NCBI GenBank assembly: GCA_019057865.1
Contig: JAHLWP010000037.1
Span: 1 to 42,029 of the forward strand
Direction: 5' to 3'
Origin: Promethearchaeota archaeon
Lineage (GTDB): Archaea; Asgardarchaeota; Lokiarchaeia; Sigyniarchaeales; SOKP01
DNA length: 42,029 nucleotides
This document shows, in pieces, positions 31,353 to 42,029 of the stretch (positions within the stretch are counted from its first letter, which is position 1; each line of letters starts with the position of its first letter). Under the pieces are notes generated by a model that was given only the letters and a program-made list of their open reading frames with translations, did no database searches and was not told the DNA's origin. A program made the translations under genes and the position numbers.

Positions 31353-32294
31353 TTGGAAATGAAGATTCTGTTGTGTGGTCTTGAAGAAGCAGGAAAAACC
31401 TCTATTTTATTAGTTTTAGATAGGAAGTTTAGTTTATTAACATCGGTTGCACCTACTATCAAAGCTAAAAGAACCTCACATACTAATAAACTGTTAGGTA
31501 TCTCAATTACGCGTTGGGATTTAGGTGGACACCAAATTTATAGAAAGATATATTTAGACAATAAAAGTAAATATTTTACTGAAATGCAATCAATTTTTTA
31601 CGTAATTGATATACAAAACCAAGATAAATTTGATCAGGCACTAATTTATCTTAAAGATATTATAAATATTGTTATAGATAATCATCCCGAAAACTTTCAA
31701 TTATTAATCCTATTGCATAAATATGACCCTGACATTAAAAACAAAAAAGAAATGAAAGATAATATACAATTTTTAGAGAGTAACATAAAATCTATAATTA
31801 AAAATCTAAAATATTCTTTTTATAGAACTTCCATTTATGATGATTCTAGCTTATTAAAAGCATTTTCAGACGGAGTATTCTCAGCAACTGAGAAATCAAA
31901 ATTATTACAATCTTTGTTAAGAGATTATATGAGTAAAACATATACTAGTTCTACTCTTCTTTTGGATCAAAACTGTTTTATTATCGCAAGTAGAGCTACC
32001 GACGAAACTTATCAAGAAATTTGTGAAGCCATTGCTCCCAGATTAACAAATGCACTGGAAAAATTAGAAGAATGGGATATTGATACGAAAGATATAACAA
32101 CAAATATCGAATTTCCTCAAAATACTTTGGAGCAATCTAGAGAAGGTATAATTTTTTTAAGAAAACTAGAAATAAATAATGATAGATTATATCTTATTGT
32201 TCTTTGTTTAAATAAAAGAATTCAAAACAGATCCTATGAGTATTTACCAATCTTAGCTGCAAATCTAAAGAATTTATTAGAAAGTTTTGAATAA
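31353..32294 (+). CDS. Small GTPase (Arf/Rag-like) fused to a C-terminal roadblock/longin-like domain
   Basis: G1 GLEEAGKTS, G2 PTI, G3 WDLGG, G4 HKYD, G5 TSI; about 130-aa C-terminal alpha/beta domain. Confidence 0.85.
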   Translation: MEMKILLCGLEEAGKTSILLVLDRKFSLLTSVAPTIKAKRTSHTNKLLGISITRWDLGGHQIYRKIYLDNKSKYFTEMQSIFYVIDIQNQDKFDQALIYLKDIINIVIDNHPENFQLLILLHKYDPDIKNKKEMKDNIQFLESNIKSIIKNLKYSFYRTSIYDDSSLLKAFSDGVFSATEKSKLLQSLLRDYMSKTYTSSTLLLDQNCFIIASRATDETYQEICEAIAPRLTNALEKLEEWDIDTKDITTNIEFPQNTLEQSREGIIFLRKLEINNDRLYLIVLCLNKRIQNRSYEYLPILAANLKNLLESFE

Positions 32295-32431: not shown

Positions 32432-33622
32432 ATGATTGTTGACTCAAACAATATTAATGAATATGTTGGACCAAAAGCAATTTTTGATCCAAATTATGTA
32501 CCCCCTCAATTATTATATAGAGAAAAAGAAGAAAAATCATTATATTCCATTTTAAATGATTCAATTTCAGATAAATTTTATCTTAATATATTGTATCAGG
32601 GAGTTCAAGGAATCGGTAAAAAAGTTATCGTTAATAAAGTCTTGAAAGATCTATTAATTAAAAATAAGGAATTAACAAATATTCATAAAATCTGTATTGA
32701 CTGTAAAGAAAAAACTCTTGAGGATTTAATATTTTCAATATTAACCGAATTAAATCATTTTTTAAATTTTAACTTCAATTTTAAATCAATTTTAACTTCA
32801 AAGGTTTCTCATTTATGGAATATGATTAAATTAGTATGTAAAAAAATAAATTGTAATCTTTTCTTTTTATTTTATAATATTGAATGTTTGCAGCCAGAAA
32901 TCTATAAGAAATTTCTGCATTTTGGAAAAGAAACAAATATAACATTGATTTCTACAGTAAATAAAATTTTAAAACCTTCTACTTTAGATTTATTAAGTGA
33001 ATTTGATCTAAAAAAAAGATTAGAATTTTTTAGCTATAATGAATTATACTCTATTCTTAAGCAACGAGTATCCCTGACATTTACTCATGAAATAGATAAG
33101 GAATTAATTAGATATATAACAGATCTAATTTGTGAACATTATGTACCTGTACCAGGAAAAGGCATTGAAATACTTAGAGATATATATCCGTTATTAATAG
33201 ATAAGAAAGATTTCAAAAATTTTGAACTAATAGATATATGCCAAAATGAATTCGATTCCATTCAAATTACTGATGAATTTAGCATTCTAAATTATGTTTC
33301 TGAAGAAGATCTTTTAACAATAATATTTTTTGACAATTTATCAAACTATTTCTTGAAAAAGTTGAAATATTATATCTCTTTGAATGAATTAAAGGAATTA
33401 TATGATATTTCCTGTGAATCTTTAGAATATAAAAAAAGTTTGAATGAGTTCAACGATTTAATTAAAAGATTGCTAAGTTTTGGGATTTTAAGTGGTTCAA
33501 AAAGAAATCAAATCAAAAAAAAACCGTATTTATTGAATAATTCTTCAAATTACGATTCTTTCTTCATGGCACTAAACCCCAAACACCTAAAAGCTATAGT
33601 AGATGCGATATTTAATAATTAA
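32432..33622 (+). CDS. Cdc6/Orc1-like AAA+ protein with degenerate ATPase motifs
   Basis: FDPNYVPPQLLYRE.E N-terminus, Walker A-like GVQGIGKK, Y...EL..IL.QR motif, C-terminal wHTH-like region; Walker B DE absent. Confidence 0.8.
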   Translation: MIVDSNNINEYVGPKAIFDPNYVPPQLLYREKEEKSLYSILNDSISDKFYLNILYQGVQGIGKKVIVNKVLKDLLIKNKELTNIHKICIDCKEKTLEDLIFSILTELNHFLNFNFNFKSILTSKVSHLWNMIKLVCKKINCNLFFLFYNIECLQPEIYKKFLHFGKETNITLISTVNKILKPSTLDLLSEFDLKKRLEFFSYNELYSILKQRVSLTFTHEIDKELIRYITDLICEHYVPVPGKGIEILRDIYPLLIDKKDFKNFELIDICQNEFDSIQITDEFSILNYVSEEDLLTIIFFDNLSNYFLKKLKYYISLNELKELYDISCESLEYKKSLNEFNDLIKRLLSFGILSGSKRNQIKKKPYLLNNSSNYDSFFMALNPKHLKAIVDAIFNN

Positions 33623-33813: not shown

Positions 33814-36800
33814 TTGACATATATTAAAAAAATCTCTATGACTGGTTTCAAATCATTTGGAGAACGAACAGTAACAATCAAATTTTCAAGTGGTTTCACA
33901 TGTATTGTTGGACCAAATGGTGCGGGGAAATCTAATATTATAGATGCATTATGTTTTGCTTTAGGCAGACTAAGTAAGAAGACTATGAGAGCAAAAAGTT
34001 TAGAAGACCTTATTTTTGCTGGTGCTAAAGGAAAAAATCCCTCAACAAGAGCTTCTGTGACAATGTATTTTGATAATTCAGAAAATGTTTTTCCCGGGAG
34101 TACCGATACATTCGAAATAACACGGACTATTAAAAAAGGGGGTGGTGGAGGGTATAAAATGAATGGTAAAAAATCTACTCGTCAACAGATTCTCAATGCT
34201 TTAGCAGCAGCTAATGTAGATCCAGATGGTAGTAACCAATTCGTTCTTCAAGGTAAAATTGTTGAATTAACTCATATGAATGCAGTAGAGAGAAGATTAT
34301 TCATTGAAGAATTAATTGGGCTTCAGAAATATGACGAAATGAAAGATTCCACCTTAAAAGAGTTAGAAAAAGCAGAAAGAGATTTAGGACAGTTTGAAGC
34401 AATTTTTAAAGAAGTTTCTGCTCAGCTTAAAAAAGTTGAAAAAGAAAAAAATGATGCATTAGCTTGGAATGAATTAGATCAACAAATTAATTTCTTAAAT
34501 TCAAAATTAATTGCTTTAAAAATTTCAAAATTACGAGAAGAAGAAGATGAATTAGAAAAAAAGGTTGAAGAATCTTCAAAAATTATTGAAGAACTGAAAG
34601 AAAAGATCTCTCGACAAGAAGATATCCTGAAACAAGAATCATTAGTTATGGAGAACATTCAGAAAACGATTACTGATAGAGAAAAGGAAAGAGAAGAAAT
34701 AAATGAAAACATAACAAATTTAAAGACACAATTATCTTCAAGTCAAACTACTTTAGATTTAGCTAGAAAATCAATAGATAAATTGACGCAAGAAATAAAA
34801 AATTTAGAGAATTTACTAATGGTACTTGAGGAAGGACAAACTTATGATTCTTTAATACAAGATGTATCTAGTCAAATTTCTGAGTGTGAAAATCACCTCG
34901 AAGCAGCTAAAAAGGAAATTGAAAGAAGACAACAAAATCAATCTGAGTTTGATATAAAAATTAAAAATAATGAGGATGAAAAATCACAATTTAAAGCGGA
35001 AATTTCAAAAATACAACAAGATATCTCATCAAATAATACCCAGATAAAGCTTCTTAGAGAAAGTATAAAAAAGAATGAAGATAAGAAAATTAAATTAGAA
35101 ACTGAATTGAATAAATTGAAACGAGAAGCTGAAAGTATAGATGAAGCTATTGATGAGGTAAAAAAAACTGAAAAACAAATTAGAAAGAGAATTGAAGATT
35201 TAAAAACTAAAATTAATGAAGAAAATCAAAAACAAAAAGAGTTAGAAACTAACATTAATGCTATTCAAGAAGAAAAAAATCAACTAAATTCAAAATCGGT
35301 TCTTCTACAATCTACATTATCATCATTGAATACTGAAATTAGTATGAATAGAAATACAATCCAAGATTTAAATGATAAAAAAGCATCTTTTGAGAATAAA
35401 ATTAGAGATTTAAGTAAAGGTAAAGACACAGAAGAAGTTGTAAAAGGTTTATTGAAAGAAAATGAAAATATTAACAAACAATTGAGTGAATTAAAAACAG
35501 GTTTAAAAAAAGAAAACTCAGTATTTAGGAGTAATGAACAAAATCTAGAACTATTAAAGATGAAACAATATTCATTTGATTCAGAAATTCATGATAATAA
35601 TGCAAAAATAGATAATATTAATACAGAATTAAAAATTTTTAAAAAAGAATTAACTAAATTAGAGCGTGAAAAGGGTAATTCAGAAGTGCAAATTAATTCT
35701 CTAAATAGCAATCTATCAAAAATAGAAAAAGATACAGAAAATTTTAATTTTAAAAGTCAGAACATTCAAAGACGTTTAGAAGAACTTACAAAGGAAAGAG
35801 ATAGTATATTAGAAAAAATTGAATCTTCTGAAGTAGAATATGAGAAAAATACCCGAGATATAACTGGAATTCTTCAAATTTTAAATATGCTCACTCAAAA
35901 TATTAACATTTCTGTTGAATCTATTAAAAGTAACATCCAATTATCAAATGCAGAAGCAATTGAGACCTCTGCTGAAGATTTCAAAAAGTTTATTCTAGAT
36001 ATTGTAGATATCATGAAAACTGTTGAGGGGATTAGTATGGATACTGAACAATCCTCTGAAATGTCAGGCATGTTAAATTCTATCCTCCGAACTTTAAAAT
36101 TATTTACTGATAATGCAGATTCATCAATTGATCAATTAATTAATAGAGTTAAAGAATCTGCTGATGTAGAAGTACAAGAATCAACCTCAACCTTTGATAG
36201 CTTTGTACAGGATTTAATGGAAATTCTTGAAAATGTCTATCTTTCATTAAGAAAATTAACAATGTCAAAAAGTCAAGATTTATATAAGCAACTAGAAGAT
36301 ATCTCTGAAAATATTAAATCACAAGGTGATGATCTTAATAGTGCGGAGAAAAAATTGTCAGAATTAAGTCTTCTAAAAAAACATAATTCAGAAACCTTGT
36401 CAACATTAACAAGAAGACTTGAAGAAATTAATGGAAGAAATAAGGAATTAAATGAAAAAATTAAAAATTCTGAATTAGAAATTGAAGAAAGAAAGAAATT
36501 AGTCAATGAGAAGCAAAAAGAAACAGAAAAATTAGAAATTGAGATAAATAAATTAAAAGAACTAAAAGATACTTACTGGGAAAATATTTCGAAGATTCAA
36601 GATGATATTGATAAAAAACAAAAGGAATTAGAAGATTTAAGAGAAAATCTACAAGAATTGCACGGAATCCAAAATTTATTTGAAAATATTACAGAAATTG
36701 ACAATGACATAGGAAAGTTAAATAATATTATTGAGGAAAAGAAAAATTCAATTATCAATACAGAAGAAAGCATAAATCAAATTCATACAGAACAAGATAC

Positions 36801-38259
36801 CTTACAAAACAAAATTGAAACATTAATTTTAGAAAAAGAAAAATTTTGGGAAAAAACAGAAAGTTTAAGGAAACAAATAGACAAGGAAAATGAGTCATTA
36901 GAAGATACAATGGATCGTCTAAGAGCACTTGAAAATGTGATGAGAATTATTAATTCAATTGAAGATATTAAGAAAGAGAATATAGATGCTAACAATAAAA
37001 TTGAACTTTGTCTTAACAATATTGAAAATTTCAATTCTCAAGTAGATGAAATTCAAAAAACTGTTGATCAAAAACAACAGACTATAGATTCCTTGAGAAA
37101 TGAAAAAACTAAAGAAGTAGAATTACAAAAAGCAGCTCAAAAAGAATTAAATAAATTAAATAAGGATTTACAGAAATATCAACGCCAAATTAATGAGCTA
37201 AACAAAAATAAGGAAAGAGAACAAAAAATTTCAGAATTAAATCAAGATATTAAAGATACTGAAAAACAAATAGAATCAATTTTAGAAGAGTTAGAAAAAT
37301 TTAAAGAACAACTTAATAGTGAAAATGGAAAAAAGGATATAAAACAAAAAGAAATCGATGAATTCAATTATCAAAAGGACGAATCATGGAGAAAGCAAAA
37401 GCAATATCAAAAAATCTTAAATGATTTAAAATCAGATCTTTCTATGGAAAATGCTAAAATAAATAATTATGAATCTAAAAAAATAATTTGTACTGATCAA
37501 ATAGAGACTTTATTCCAGAGATCTAAAGAATATGGTTCACTCCCTCCTGTTACTGAGGATTTAACAGAAGCTGAATTACAATCAGATATTGGGGACGTAA
37601 CAACGAAGAAAAAAGCTCTTGAACCAGTCAACTTAAAAGCCATTCAACAATATGATGCCGTAAAAGAGAGATTCGATGAGATAGATATGCGAAGACAGAC
37701 TATTCAACGTGAACGCAAGGCGATCTTAGACGCAATAGATAAAATAGAACTTGAGAAGACAAGAACATTCATGAAAGCTTACCATGAAATAAATAGAGAG
37801 TTCAGTAGAATTTTCCAGAAGCTTAGTCCCGGTGGTTCGGCTAAAATGATCCTAGATCGCCCTGATAAACCCTTTGAAGGAGGGATTAGCATCGAAGCTC
37901 GACCTCGTGGGAAGAAAATTTCAAGTCTGGAAATTCTTAGTGGTGGAGAAAAAACTCTCGTGGCACTCTCATTTATCTTTGCCGTTCAAGAATTCATGCC
38001 AAGTCCGTTTTATATTCTCGACGAGATTGATGCTCAACTCGACGGTCCAAATGTTCACAGAGTTTCCATGTTGCTCAAGGAGATCTCTGATCAAGCACAA
38101 TTCTTGGTTATAAGCCACAGAGAGGAGAATATTGTAAATGCGGACAGGATATATGGCGTATCCATGCAGCAGTCCGGAATAACGGATATCTTTAGTGTCG
38201 ATTTAGAAGAAGAGGCAAAACGACTGTTAGAACTTCCCGACGTTCCTTCTCAAATATAA
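33814..38259 (+). CDS. smc: SMC-family ATPase with Smc-type heads, long coiled coils and a non-canonical apex
   Basis: GFKSF, GPNGAGKSNIIDA, Q-loop VLQG, PVNLKAI, LSGGEK, FYILDEIDAQLD, QFLVISHR. Confidence 0.9.
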   Translation: MTYIKKISMTGFKSFGERTVTIKFSSGFTCIVGPNGAGKSNIIDALCFALGRLSKKTMRAKSLEDLIFAGAKGKNPSTRASVTMYFDNSENVFPGSTDTFEITRTIKKGGGGGYKMNGKKSTRQQILNALAAANVDPDGSNQFVLQGKIVELTHMNAVERRLFIEELIGLQKYDEMKDSTLKELEKAERDLGQFEAIFKEVSAQLKKVEKEKNDALAWNELDQQINFLNSKLIALKISKLREEEDELEKKVEESSKIIEELKEKISRQEDILKQESLVMENIQKTITDREKEREEINENITNLKTQLSSSQTTLDLARKSIDKLTQEIKNLENLLMVLEEGQTYDSLIQDVSSQISECENHLEAAKKEIERRQQNQSEFDIKIKNNEDEKSQFKAEISKIQQDISSNNTQIKLLRESIKKNEDKKIKLETELNKLKREAESIDEAIDEVKKTEKQIRKRIEDLKTKINEENQKQKELETNINAIQEEKNQLNSKSVLLQSTLSSLNTEISMNRNTIQDLNDKKASFENKIRDLSKGKDTEEVVKGLLKENENINKQLSELKTGLKKENSVFRSNEQNLELLKMKQYSFDSEIHDNNAKIDNINTELKIFKKELTKLEREKGNSEVQINSLNSNLSKIEKDTENFNFKSQNIQRRLEELTKERDSILEKIESSEVEYEKNTRDITGILQILNMLTQNINISVESIKSNIQLSNAEAIETSAEDFKKFILDIVDIMKTVEGISMDTEQSSEMSGMLNSILRTLKLFTDNADSSIDQLINRVKESADVEVQESTSTFDSFVQDLMEILENVYLSLRKLTMSKSQDLYKQLEDISENIKSQGDDLNSAEKKLSELSLLKKHNSETLSTLTRRLEEINGRNKELNEKIKNSELEIEERKKLVNEKQKETEKLEIEINKLKELKDTYWENISKIQDDIDKKQKELEDLRENLQELHGIQNLFENITEIDNDIGKLNNIIEEKKNSIINTEESINQIHTEQDTLQNKIETLILEKEKFWEKTESLRKQIDKENESLEDTMDRLRALENVMRIINSIEDIKKENIDANNKIELCLNNIENFNSQVDEIQKTVDQKQQTIDSLRNEKTKEVELQKAAQKELNKLNKDLQKYQRQINELNKNKEREQKISELNQDIKDTEKQIESILEELEKFKEQLNSENGKKDIKQKEIDEFNYQKDESWRKQKQYQKILNDLKSDLSMENAKINNYESKKIICTDQIETLFQRSKEYGSLPPVTEDLTEAELQSDIGDVTTKKKALEPVNLKAIQQYDAVKERFDEIDMRRQTIQRERKAILDAIDKIELEKTRTFMKAYHEINREFSRIFQKLSPGGSAKMILDRPDKPFEGGISIEARPRGKKISSLEILSGGEKTLVALSFIFAVQEFMPSPFYILDEIDAQLDGPNVHRVSMLLKEISDQAQFLVISHREENIVNADRIYGVSMQQSGITDIFSVDLEEEAKRLLELPDVPSQI

Positions 38260-38281
38260 AAATAACCAAAGAATATCCATT

Positions 38282-41200
38282 TTATTTATTTTTTCTGCAT
38301 TTACTGCAAGGCTCAACTTTTTGGTTTACTAATCTTTTAAAGTACTTGGGAGTCATTGTAAATTCATGCTGATTTTGACATTGCATATATACTTTTTTAG
38401 TATTATTTTCATAGTCTGAGAAGAGGGTGTATTTCAAGGATTTTACCATTTCATAAAACTCGAGTTTAGCGGTCTTTTGTCTAGTTCTATTAGGATGGTT
38501 TTTATCTGCACAGATTTTACACCAACTTCCTTGGTACACGACTGCTGGAGTAGTATTCCATTCATGATTGTTTTCGCATTTAATTTTTATAGGTTTAAAT
38601 CGTCCTTTATATGGAGTTAATAGATATCCACCTTTATCACTAACGATCTGTTGAAATTTTTCTGCAAATAACTCCATTTGACATTTTGGACAAATCTCTG
38701 TGATTTCTTCATAAGTTCTTTTTAACCAGTAAGGAGTTCGCTTAAATTTATGTCCTTTTTGGCAAATATAACGTAATGGAGTTTTGGCATTAACATACTC
38801 ATTGAGTAAATCGCAATTAAACTTTTTTCCTATTTTTCGAAACTCTTCTGTTGTTCCTTTTGTATTCCCTGCACACTCTGAACACCAATTGTCTTTATAG
38901 ATGGAGTCAGGAGTCGTGGTCCACTGGTGTCCCTTTTCACACATAAGAGTTACTTCTTTTTTAGCTGAAAAATAGGGTGTGAGTAAAGTTCCGCCTTTTT
39001 TTTCGACACATGCTCGAAATTTTTTAGCATATTTATTTTCATATATAGTAAATTCCTTATAATCATATTTAGGGATATTTTCAAGAGCCTTTCCAGTTTT
39101 TCTTTCGTATTCTTGTATTATATAATCTTGTATTTCATCGTAAGGCACGATTTTATCATCGAGGATTTGAATGAGAATTACATTATTCTCCCAACATAAT
39201 TTTAATTTGAGAGCATCTTCATTTTTAATATTTTGTAAATCCTCATTCGTCATATTAAAGGTTTTTTTACGATGTTGAATTCCTTGATATTCAAACGCTA
39301 AACCCAATTCTTTGTTATATCCATCAAGTTCCATTTGGTTCCCCTTTTCATTTACAAGCCATGGAGGATAACTTTTCGGGAAGGGCCTTTTGAAGATTCT
39401 TTTGAAGAATTGTCTACAAATTGTCTCGCTAACGTATATATGGCAATCTGGGCACCAAGTATTGGAATAAACAACACTATTGTATGTAGTATCAAAGTGA
39501 TGTCCTTCAGCGCACTCAAGGTGTATTTTTGATTTAGCATTTTTAATATTTTTCGTATGACATTTTCCCCCTTTTTTTTCTGCGATTTCTTCAATGGTCT
39601 TTATAGTTACATATTTTTGTGTTCGAATATATTTTTGATATTTTTCTTTTGGGAACATCCTTTTCAGCTGATTCCGCGCAGAAGTATCGCTTATTAGAAG
39701 CCATTCCTGTATGTCATACGCATTAAATTTTCCCTTATTTTTCAAAATAAGATTCCTAATAGCTCTGGTTAAGAGGTCATTGTCCCTAATTTTCATTATT
39801 AAAGTGATATAAGTTGAAAGTATTTCTACTTGGTTTTTAATAGTGTTGGAACTATTATTTTGAGAAACATTTTCTAACAATTTTCTCTTTTTTTTCATAA
39901 AATTAATAAAGGTTTTAGTAGGACGAAGGCTCTTTATCCAGCAACCAAATTTATTAAATTCATTAATAAGGTCTTTTATTAACTCGATTTTATGTGTGTA
40001 TTGTAAAAATTCTTCAAATAATTCAGATGTAAATTTTTTGCTTTTATATAATTCCTTATAACTTTTGAATTTTTTTTTTAAAACTTCATATTTATTAGAA
40101 AGATGTCTGAGAAATTTATATTTTATTTCACTAACAAGCGCGGGATTCCACCAATGACGATCTTGAAAGTATGCTTTAAATCCGCTTATATTCAAATATA
40201 AATGTAAGTGAATTGGGTCTATATTTCGTAGTTTATTTATGATTGAGTTAAACTCATCTCTTACTTTTTTAGTTAATTCTCCTTTTTCATATTTTTTATA
40301 TAATTCTTCTAAATCTTCATAATTTCTAAAATTTTGAATGATCTCTTTCAAAATTACTTTAAGTTCAGAGCTGAGATCTTCTTCTATAGATCCTTCTATC
40401 CAATGCTTAAGTGTCCTTTGCCATTCCTCCTCTCTTTCTTTCTCTTCTTTTTCTTCTAATTCCTTAGTTTTTAATTCTTGTTGTTCTAACCATTGGCTAA
40501 ACCCTTTTGTCTCTCTTCCTGCATATATAGATCTTTTACTAGTTTCTTGGCGATATAATTGCTGAAGCTTTTTATATTCTTCTTCTTCAGCTTCTTTACT
40601 CTCTAGCTTGTTTTTTTTCTCAATGGATTCGTTGATTCTTTCTTGATATGGCTCTACATCATCCATTTCGATATCATTTAATTCTGTGTTGATCTCTTCT
40701 TCTGCTTCTTTTTTTTCCACTTCTTGATAGATGTTTCTATTTTCATTGTTACTATAAACAGAGATTTGTTTAATTTGTTCTGATTCTTTTAAATCTGAGT
40801 TTATTTCATCAATTTCAGCTTGTTTGATTCTAAGTTCTTCAGTCATATCTTTTTCTTGTTCGTTTTGCTGTTTTTCTTCTATTTCACTTAAGAAGAAATC
40901 CTTCGCAATCTCTTCCACCTGCTCGTCTATTTCTTCTTGAGGTTTTCCTTGTTGGTGTAATTTTTCTTCAGTATTTAAAAAATATTCTATTGCATCTACC
41001 CTATCAATCTCTTCTCTTACATCATCGTCATCCTCTTCATCTTCATGGTCAATTAATTTTAATTTTTCTTTTTCTTGTTGTTCATAGAGCTTTTCAACAT
41101 TTTTTAAGAGTTTATAAGTTTCTTCTGCCTCATGCATTAAATTACTGATTTCTTCAGAATTCTTCCCTTCTTGTTCATACTGTTCATATTTTTCCCAAAG

Positions 41201-42029
41201 ATAATCAAACTCTTCTGGCTCTATCTCTGCTTCTTCTGATGTATCATTGACATCTTCCCCTTGTGCATCACCAGAAAGTATTTCCTCAATATGCTCTTCC
41301 TTCTGATCTTCTGTAATTTCTTTTTCTTGTTCCTCTAATTCTTGGGCCTCTTCCTTTTCTTCTTTATTACTATTTCTTTCTTTAATTTCCCTATAAGCTT
41401 GCTCAGCATTAAAGGCGGTATTATCATTTTCCTCTTCAGAATAGCCTAACTTCTCATCATATTCTTTCAGCATGCGTCCTAATTCTTCCATATCCCTAAC
41501 AAATTTTATCTCTTCGGTATCAATAATAGGATCTTGGTTATTTTCGTATTCTTCTGGATCTATTTCTATTGCTTCTTCCTCATTCTCTAGGTACTCCTCT
41601 TCCTCCTCAGTATATTCCTCACTTTCAGCTTGAAGTTCTTCCTGATTTTCTCCTTCTATTTCAGGATTTTCATGCATTAATACAATACTTTGAGAGCCGA
41701 TATTTTCATATTCTTCTTCCGCCTCATTAAATTGTTCATCAAACTCCTTATCAAGCTCCTCATCTGTTAATTCTTCCATTTCATGAAATCCACTATTAAA
41801 ATCCTCATCAGTCTCATCTGTTAATTCTTCCATTTCATGAAATCCTCCATTAAAATCCTCATCAGTCTCATCTGTTAATTCTTCCATTTCATGAAATCCA
41901 CTATTAAAATCCTCATCAGTCTCATCTGTTAATTCTTCCATTTCATGAAATCCTCCATTAAAATCCTCATCAGTCTCATCTGTTAATTCTTCCATTTCAT
42001 GAAATCCACTATTAAAATCCTCATCAGTC
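38282..42029 (-). CDS. Large protein (5' end beyond the window): acidic repeat region, HTH-like segment, five CxxxH...CxxC zinc-ribbon repeats and a Vsr/DUF559-like endonuclease domain
   Basis: CAEGH..WCPDC, CEKGH..WCSEC, CQKGH..CPKC, CENNH..WCKIC, CQNQH..CSKC; ELDGY...LAFEYQGIQH...D..K...C. Confidence 0.78.
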   Translation of the reverse strand, partial: TDEDFNSGFHEMEELTDETDEDFNGGFHEMEELTDETDEDFNSGFHEMEELTDETDEDFNGGFHEMEELTDETDEDFNSGFHEMEELTDEELDKEFDEQFNEAEEEYENIGSQSIVLMHENPEIEGENQEELQAESEEYTEEEEEYLENEEEAIEIDPEEYENNQDPIIDTEEIKFVRDMEELGRMLKEYDEKLGYSEEENDNTAFNAEQAYREIKERNSNKEEKEEAQELEEQEKEITEDQKEEHIEEILSGDAQGEDVNDTSEEAEIEPEEFDYLWEKYEQYEQEGKNSEEISNLMHEAEETYKLLKNVEKLYEQQEKEKLKLIDHEDEEDDDDVREEIDRVDAIEYFLNTEEKLHQQGKPQEEIDEQVEEIAKDFFLSEIEEKQQNEQEKDMTEELRIKQAEIDEINSDLKESEQIKQISVYSNNENRNIYQEVEKKEAEEEINTELNDIEMDDVEPYQERINESIEKKNKLESKEAEEEEYKKLQQLYRQETSKRSIYAGRETKGFSQWLEQQELKTKELEEKEEKEREEEWQRTLKHWIEGSIEEDLSSELKVILKEIIQNFRNYEDLEELYKKYEKGELTKKVRDEFNSIINKLRNIDPIHLHLYLNISGFKAYFQDRHWWNPALVSEIKYKFLRHLSNKYEVLKKKFKSYKELYKSKKFTSELFEEFLQYTHKIELIKDLINEFNKFGCWIKSLRPTKTFINFMKKKRKLLENVSQNNSSNTIKNQVEILSTYITLIMKIRDNDLLTRAIRNLILKNKGKFNAYDIQEWLLISDTSARNQLKRMFPKEKYQKYIRTQKYVTIKTIEEIAEKKGGKCHTKNIKNAKSKIHLECAEGHHFDTTYNSVVYSNTWCPDCHIYVSETICRQFFKRIFKRPFPKSYPPWLVNEKGNQMELDGYNKELGLAFEYQGIQHRKKTFNMTNEDLQNIKNEDALKLKLCWENNVILIQILDDKIVPYDEIQDYIIQEYERKTGKALENIPKYDYKEFTIYENKYAKKFRACVEKKGGTLLTPYFSAKKEVTLMCEKGHQWTTTPDSIYKDNWCSECAGNTKGTTEEFRKIGKKFNCDLLNEYVNAKTPLRYICQKGHKFKRTPYWLKRTYEEITEICPKCQMELFAEKFQQIVSDKGGYLLTPYKGRFKPIKIKCENNHEWNTTPAVVYQGSWCKICADKNHPNRTRQKTAKLEFYEMVKSLKYTLFSDYENNTKKVYMQCQNQHEFTMTPKYFKRLVNQKVEPCSKCRKNK
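41759..42029. repeat. 54-bp tandem repeat, about five copies in an alternating ABABA pattern, running off the window end
   Basis: CATCTG unit starts at 41761, 41815, 41869, 41923 and 41977; encodes MEELTDETDEDFN(S/G)GFHE on the minus strand. Confidence 0.97.

Follow-up and report, generated by a model that had tools for sequence, protein, structure and literature searches.

The DNA analysed here (the window) is an entire contig of 42,029 nucleotides, C80, from a Promethearchaeota archaeon of the Lokiarchaeia whose genome is 4.26 Mb in size, 27% GC and 99.67% complete. Its forward strand carries, at 33814..38259, an smc gene that has a TTG start and encodes 1481 amino acids; these limits include the stop codon and come from the list of open reading frames and the translation. 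The product is a conserved and genuine Smc of the Smc-ScpAB type that bears, where the hinge would be, a duplicated helical hairpin at the end of modularly extended arms. An earlier reading of the window, called the original prediction below, had drawn attention to nucleotides 35869-36237, which encode aa 686-808 of this protein. Sequence comparisons strongly support its assignment, as the Smc subunit, to a condensin-type Smc-ScpAB complex of the Lokiarchaeia.

The two halves of the ATPase head lie at the two ends of the protein. The N-terminal half (aa 1-170, 33814..34323, forward strand), delimited by motifs in the translation, contains the Walker A motif GPNGAGKS at aa 33-40 and the Q-loop residue Q146. 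The C-terminal half (aa ~1261-1481, 37594..38256, forward strand), delimited by motifs and by its match to Pyrococcus Smc heads (which covers aa 1254-1472), contains the signature LSGGEK at aa 1375-1380, the Walker B/D-loop motif DEID at aa 1403-1406 and the H-loop residue H1435. All of these motifs are invariant in an alignment of 16 family members. PF02463 (SMC_N, Pfam) matches both ends of the protein with 133 bits. Of the NCBIfam models, TIGR02168 passes its cut-off (606 bits against 567), and TIGR02169, the archaeal type, does not reach its own (634 bits against 729). Among solved structures, Pyrococcus Smc heads are the nearest, with 414 bits for 5XEI, 368 bits for 5XNS and 332 bits for 4I99; B. 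subtilis Smc and eukaryotic SMC2, SMC1 and SMC3 come after them. These matches strongly support an intact ATPase head of the archaeal Smc type, and they bear out the canonical Smc heads of the original prediction.

Other members of the superfamily were considered and rejected. Rad50 models give at most 112 bits against cut-offs of 700-1087, and the protein has no zinc hook. The ASRP model (ClsN/Sph; NF045487) gives 156 bits against a cut-off of 300, and there is no CxxC. Models of RecN and arcadin-4 score far under their cut-offs.

The missing hinge and the duplicated apex

The hinge model PF06470 (SMC_hinge, Pfam) has no match at E≤1 in the full protein or in aa 560-940, and it is absent, among the matches listed, from the precomputed Pfam lists of all 120 homologues. 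In a search of the whole genome its sole match is another gene, on contig C57. Cysteines occur in the translation only at aa 30, 47, 358, 1066 and 1226, all away from the apex. There is no CxxC at the apex and not one cysteine in aa 359-1065, so the protein has no zinc hook. Both absences had been claimed in the original prediction, and both hold. In BLASTP comparisons with hinge-bearing Asgard Smc proteins, the sequence is alignable only from aa 1 to ~330-450 and from aa ~940-1130 to its end; ~490 central residues therefore stand in place of the ~275 residues (aa ~415-690) that include the hinge in the canonical protein.

The middle of the protein contains two 52-aa segments, repeat 1 (aa 686-737, 35869..36024, forward strand) and repeat 2 (aa 757-808, 36082..36237, forward strand), which were delimited by their alignment to each other, by a profile hidden Markov model (HMM) and by structure prediction with AlphaFold2 (AF2). 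As the original prediction had counted, they align without gaps at 13 of 52 identities. The ungapped BLOSUM62 score of the pair is 71. Over 20,000 shuffles the score was -28.6 +/- 15.9 (z 6.3) and never as high as 71, and one shuffle reached 13 identities. When family sub-profiles of the two halves were compared with hhalign, they aligned over 60 gapless columns with a probability of 98.2% (E 3e-14). An HMM of the repeat unit finds exactly two matches, of 87 and 89 bits, in the protein and in a six-frame translation of the 4.26-Mb genome. Since it matches nothing else in the genome, the similarity is not a generic likeness between coiled coils. On this sequence evidence the two segments are truly homologous.

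The repeats also differ from the arms in composition. Large hydrophobic residues make up 39% of repeat 1 and 37% of repeat 2, compared with ~25% in the arms; charged residues make up 22% and 26%, compared with ~40%. The hydrophobic stripes at the ends of the repeats are broader than an a/d pattern. This composition and these wide stripes would fit packing beyond a two-helix coil, most simply in a four-helix bundle made by two hairpins.

AF2 was run on aa 610-890 with an alignment of 60 sequences, giving five models. The fragment is predicted to be all helix and to form a single hairpin (mean pLDDT 86), with one helix at aa 611-743, a four-residue turn at aa 744-747 and a second helix at aa 748-889. 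The turn, the non-helical positions 135-138 of the fragment, lies in the linker between the repeats (aa 738-756, 36025..36081, forward strand; assigned from AF2) and falls on the exact midpoint of the repeat centres. Repeats 1 and 2 are therefore predicted to be the antiparallel strands of the tip, ascending and descending respectively, and to be related by a pseudo-dyad. The model predicts an all-helical tip, neither an alpha/beta hinge nor a separate globular domain. A hinge fold in this region was one outcome that would have counted against the original prediction, and it does not appear.

It could be argued that the AF2 hairpin is wrong, and that the repeats and the flanking arm helices fold back into a compact intramolecular bundle that caps the arms, whether or not this cap dimerises. 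Confidence does drop at the tip, to pLDDT 75-83 in the apex and to its lowest block (63) at the turn, and hydrophobic residues are more frequent than a two-helix coil would lead one to expect. All five models, however, are high-confidence continuous helices, and helix breakers are missing: proline is absent from the whole of aa 240-1240, and glycines in or beside the module occur only at aa 685, 739 and 752. The position of the turn, exactly midway between the repeats, also speaks against such a cap, which is improbable.

The hairpin tip sits on long arms. The N-terminal strand (aa ~171-685, 34324..35868, forward strand) and the C-terminal strand (aa ~809-1260, 36238..37593, forward strand) were delimited by the BLASTP limits and by hhalign. 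When counted from the turn the strands are near-equal, at ~540-575 aa each, and in a protein of 1481 aa they are longer than in typical Smc, as had been suggested. Comparison of windows of the protein against one another with hhalign reveals internal repeats in both. The N-terminal strand has repeats of ~97 aa at aa ~260-625 (34590-35690), with offsets of 97-98 and 195 and E-values down to 3e-14; the C-terminal strand has repeats of ~90 aa at aa ~890-1080 (36480-37050), with offsets of ~90 and E-values down to 6e-12. These arm repeats score comparably to the apex repeats in hhalign and are of a different kind from the apex unit. They suggest that the extra arm length arose by modular duplication. 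The antiparallel coiled coil is taken from the AF2 hairpin for aa 610-890, and for the rest of the arms from their composition and their alignment to canonical arms.

The original prediction had gone on to propose a distinct Smc subfamily with a duplicated helical apex as a dimerisation module of its own. The subfamily stands, with its Smc heads, its conservation, its lack of a hinge or hook and its long arms. The separate apex domain does not, as AF2 predicts a plain hairpin.

Distribution, paralogues and partners

The apex region is present in 38 of 41 close relatives. Its identity is ~70% among members of the genus and drops to 26-38% over the order as a whole. A profile search finds it in 37 of 40 and 3 of 3 genomes of two families and in 1 of 10 genomes of a third, and in none of the remaining 24 families sampled in the phylum. 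Complete frames are ~1300-1510 aa long, mostly ~1480-1500 aa, and include genes from complete chromosomes. The heads are ~70-88% conserved in the family. A decaying or mis-assembled smc gene with a functionless, low-complexity coiled-coil middle has nothing to recommend it beyond the absence of the hinge. The frame is intact, at 1470-1501 aa, in most of the dozens of genomes that have the complete gene, the ATPase motifs are invariant and the scpAB operon is conserved, which makes decay or mis-assembly highly implausible.

The hingeless Smc is also encoded by Promethearchaeum syntrophicum MK-D1, which is in culture (QEE14997.1, DSAG12_00820, 1493 aa), and by Ca. Harpocratesius repetitus. Among 1.84 billion representative proteins, the apex profile matches 42, all of Loki type. 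One contig labelled 'Candidatus Nanopelagicaceae bacterium' (Actinobacteria), L132 (DATKTW010000114.1), encodes a Loki-type Smc apex with 75% identity; it is probably a mis-binned Lokiarchaeal contig.

The hinge was searched for in 201 genomes of the phylum. Most Asgard lineages have an Smc of ~1200 aa with a strong hinge (~102-136 bits). Three genera (g13, g16 and g18) and the family f2, which includes MK-D1, have three proteins: the hingeless Smc, a strong-hinge Smc and a third, divergent Smc with a weak hinge. The hingeless Smc is thus a paralogue, found side by side with a hinge-bearing Smc in part of the genera. The genus of the window and four other genera of its family have only the hingeless and the weak-hinge Smc. 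In the genome studied here the weak-hinge protein, of 1164 aa and found by the genome search with PF06470 (29-33 bits), is encoded at G000:C57:5832-9326 (L035) on the reverse strand. Its identification as an SMC5/6-related type was not confirmed, and a phmmer search against the PDB does not favour Smc5/6. It is flanked by open reading frames of 424, 216 and 175 aa that have no significant Pfam match and could be its own kleisin and kite.

A tree of head domains was calculated from 31 rows under LG+C20, with the C57 protein left out. The hingeless clade and the Loki hinge-bearing clade each have 100/100 support, and both lie inside an unresolved radiation of canonical Asgard Smc proteins. The hingeless clade is parted from the divergent weak-hinge clade, also with 100/100 support. 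An identity with the archaeal 'SMC5/6-related' Smc (Yoshinaga & Inagaki 2021) was rejected, as the head tree puts the hingeless clade elsewhere. When the hingeless and the hinge-bearing Loki clades are held together, the log-likelihood falls by 1.0 unit (p-AU 0.25), and the test does not reject a duplication specific to Loki.

The operon of the hingeless Smc is seen in relatives. Three genomes (G183, G030 and G104) have the hingeless smc followed directly by a gene of 214-340 aa and then by scpB (115-119 bits). The gene between them has weak ScpA matches in G183 and G104 and a weak match to the C-terminal domain of Rad21/Rec8 in G183; in G030 it has no ScpA-like match. In five others (G079, G025, G174, G212 and G171) scpB (112-121 bits) lies ~3-4 kb beyond the apex on the same strand, and in G058 it lies ~8 kb from the apex. 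The hinge-bearing Smc is adjoined by its own, lower-scoring ScpB paralogue (57-75 bits).

Possible function of the tip

The hinge is treated as a defining part of SMC proteins, important for their function and required for dimerisation, DNA binding and ring opening. Here a ~490-residue coiled coil with a hairpin tip stands in for the central part of the canonical Smc, including the alpha/beta hinge. In the mechanism proposed, two Smc molecules would join at their tips, where the hairpins would pack as an antiparallel four-helix bundle, and this joining would recreate a closed Smc-kleisin ring or rod with arms of ~80 nm. An ScpA-like kleisin and the kite ScpB are predicted to bind on the evidence of the operon, their genes being directly downstream in relatives and on another contig here. 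The usual ATP cycle would then let the complex act on DNA. In this genus, which has no hinge-bearing paralogue, the hingeless Smc would form the only condensin-type complex.

Homodimerisation through a four-helix bundle of two hairpins is the reading that we favour, with a probability of about 0.6. A more far-reaching claim is that SMC proteins have here acquired a new means of dimerisation: two duplicated hairpins, each a fused pair of homologous antiparallel helices, would form a pseudo-D2 four-helix bundle and take over from the hinge entirely, and the hinge-free Smc-ScpAB would carry all condensin-type chromosome organisation wherever the hinge-bearing paralogue has been lost. This is offered tentatively, at slightly less than even odds. 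A prediction of the homodimer with aa 660-835 gave a score of 0.01 and was used neither for nor against dimerisation.

Some observations weigh against homodimerisation at the tip, or against the wider reading of the complex. Dimerisation at the apex is itself something that we infer. Over the order, sequence identity is not much higher in the apex than in the arms (mean pairwise 0.45-0.47 compared with 0.26-0.39). A Foldseek search of the apex model against the PDB finds nothing at E≤1e-3, and its top rows are generic helical hairpins, namely chemoreceptors and pieces of SMC and MukB arms. The recognition of ScpA by Pfam is below the cut-off.

The module also occurs in proteins that have no ATPase head. 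The non-fragment matches of the apex profile are Smc proteins of ~1470-1500 aa and proteins of 920-1180 aa in which the module lies at aa ~65-210. The latter have no Pfam domain and carry two strong copies of the repeat, spaced by ~70 aa as in the Smc, and two weak ones (aa ~340-455). They are found only in family f2 (Lokiarchaeales, including P. syntrophicum), and the loci examined are L056:497-3622, L057:878-3955 and L058:981-3746. A structure prediction for aa 45-480 of the ~920-aa P. syntrophicum protein gives a helix-turn-helix at the repeat pair; Foldseek finds low-TM matches only for this model, which says nothing on the formation of a bundle. Because the two-repeat module recurs in headless proteins and is again predicted to be a helix-turn-helix, it seems to behave as a self-contained unit. 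Near the headless genes, a protein of ~470 aa without Pfam matches is encoded at 3 of 3 loci, directly upstream at 2, and a JAB/MPN-like gene lies upstream at 2 of the three.

These proteins bear on a different account, in which the tip joins no Smc pair: the complex would be held together by the ATP-engaged heads and the kleisin alone, and the tip would dock DNA or a protein or would serve the folding of the arms. A related module in long headless proteins of one family does hint at heterotypic contacts, and the modest conservation of the apex agrees with this. The headless proteins can be no general partner, however, since they are confined to f2 and are missing from the present genome, where the repeat HMM matches the Smc alone. 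With large hydrophobic residues at 37-39%, a hairpin left exposed would have to be buried by some contact, and apical dimerisation is, to our knowledge, common to every SMC and Rad50 protein that has been studied well. A non-dimerising tip is the main rival but on balance unlikely, and pairing of the hairpins is preferred.

The protein shares with canonical prokaryotic Smc (Pyrococcus 5XEI and 4I99; B. subtilis 3ZGX and 5XG3) the sequence and motifs of the heads, a long antiparallel intramolecular coiled coil and, in relatives, the smc-scpA-scpB operon. It differs in that canonical Smc has an alpha/beta hinge, arm strands of ~330 aa (here ~560) and a length of ~1170-1200 aa (here 1481). A periodicity in the arm length of Smc has been reported (PMC5344682). 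In the same work an engineered B. subtilis Smc with the zinc hook of Pyrococcus Rad50 in place of the hinge was described as a functional chimera (Burmann et al. 2017), and replacement of the hinge by another dimeriser is therefore feasible. The chimera likewise combines Smc heads and arms with a small element other than a hinge at the apex; it dimerises through CxxC and zinc, whereas the Loki Smc is natural and has no cysteine near the apex. Rad50/SbcC and ASRP/ClsN/Sph proteins also have heads of the SMC superfamily, and their coiled-coil hairpins likewise lack a globular hinge. They carry a zinc hook, which has been reported for most members of the archaeal ASRP family (PMC9389158), whereas the Loki Smc has none and is probably paired with ScpAB, not with Mre11. 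A 'hinge-less' SMC cluster with neither hinge nor CxxC has been assigned to marine Actinobacteria (PMC12153180). This is another lineage, set apart by its description, and the Loki apex profile found only Loki-type proteins.

The best of the non-significant Foldseek matches is the cytoplasmic signalling domain of a methyl-accepting chemotaxis protein (MCP; 2CH7; E 2.7e-3, TM 0.36), an extended helical hairpin with many small and polar residues. In the MCP dimer, two such hairpins together make a four-helix bundle. No sequence relationship with the Loki apex was found, and the domain serves as an analogy for dimerisation only. When the PDB was searched with the sequence profile of the apex, the only matches were designed helical bundles, at E≥0.03.

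Asgard archaea are the closest known relatives of eukaryotes. One of their orders retains what is probably a Smc-ScpAB complex with a hingeless Smc, the arms of which are ~1.6 times as long as usual, and many genera of that order, including this one, appear to be without any hinge-bearing condensin-type Smc. Should the more far-reaching claim above hold, an organism closely related to the eukaryotic ancestor would show that nature can dispense with the hinge fold. If the arms do pair at the tip, they do so in a manner that has yet to be described. The presence of the cultured P. syntrophicum in the order makes biochemical and structural tests of the need for a hinge possible. Two or three SMC complexes have been described in Asgard archaea, with the hinge left unremarked (bioRxiv 10.1101/2024.01.07.573240; PMC8665677), and a literature search for a hingeless Lokiarchaeal Smc found no description. 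The hingeless complex would be a third one to consider when reconstructing how SMC proteins evolved before eukaryotes arose.

The split operon and neighbouring genes

Neither scpA nor scpB lies within the window, as the original prediction had remarked of the neighbourhood of smc. A second canonical smc and kleisins had been proposed there as genes to look for. Contig C58 of the genome carries scpB (116 bits) and a weak scpA (17-20 bits), and the further smc that was found is the divergent weak-hinge gene on C57. Directly upstream of scpA is an orphan copy of 73 codons of the smc 3' end, at G000:C58:43105-43335 (= L034:5106-5336, reverse strand). It has 81% protein identity and ~80% DNA identity to aa 1409-1481 of the window (region 37980-38290). 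In a sister species (G012), ~13 kb separate smc from the orphan fragment and scpAB. This arrangement looks like the result of an insertion into the 3' end of smc that split the operon in this genus and supplied a replacement gene end. The missing scpAB beside smc would thus be a local rearrangement, relatives having kept smc-scpA-scpB.

A convergent gene of 1237 aa (38282-41995, reverse strand) ends 22 bp after smc. The N-terminal half of its product is very acidic and has near-identical 18-aa repeats, and the C-terminal half has repeated matches to a treble-clef zinc finger (DUF4379). The end of the contig falls inside or just past the repeats of this gene, which is probably cargo of the inserted element. 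On C58, the orphan smc fragment is adjoined by a gene for a 665-aa Rad50/ASRP/DndD-like ATPase (AAA_23, AAA_15) at G000:C58:43882-45879 (= L034:5883-7880, reverse strand); this gene may belong to the inserted element as well, or to a defence island.

The gene directly upstream of smc (32432-33622, forward strand) encodes 396 aa with no Pfam match. Its weak likeness to Orc1/Cdc6 (TIGR02928, 41 bits, far under the cut-off) ruled it out as a kleisin. No homologue of it lies beside the smc of more distant relatives, for which flanks of only ~700 bp were available. Further upstream, at 31353-32294 (forward strand), is a gene for a small GTPase of the Gtr1/RagA family (98 bits), one of the eukaryote-like signature proteins that characterise Asgard genomes.

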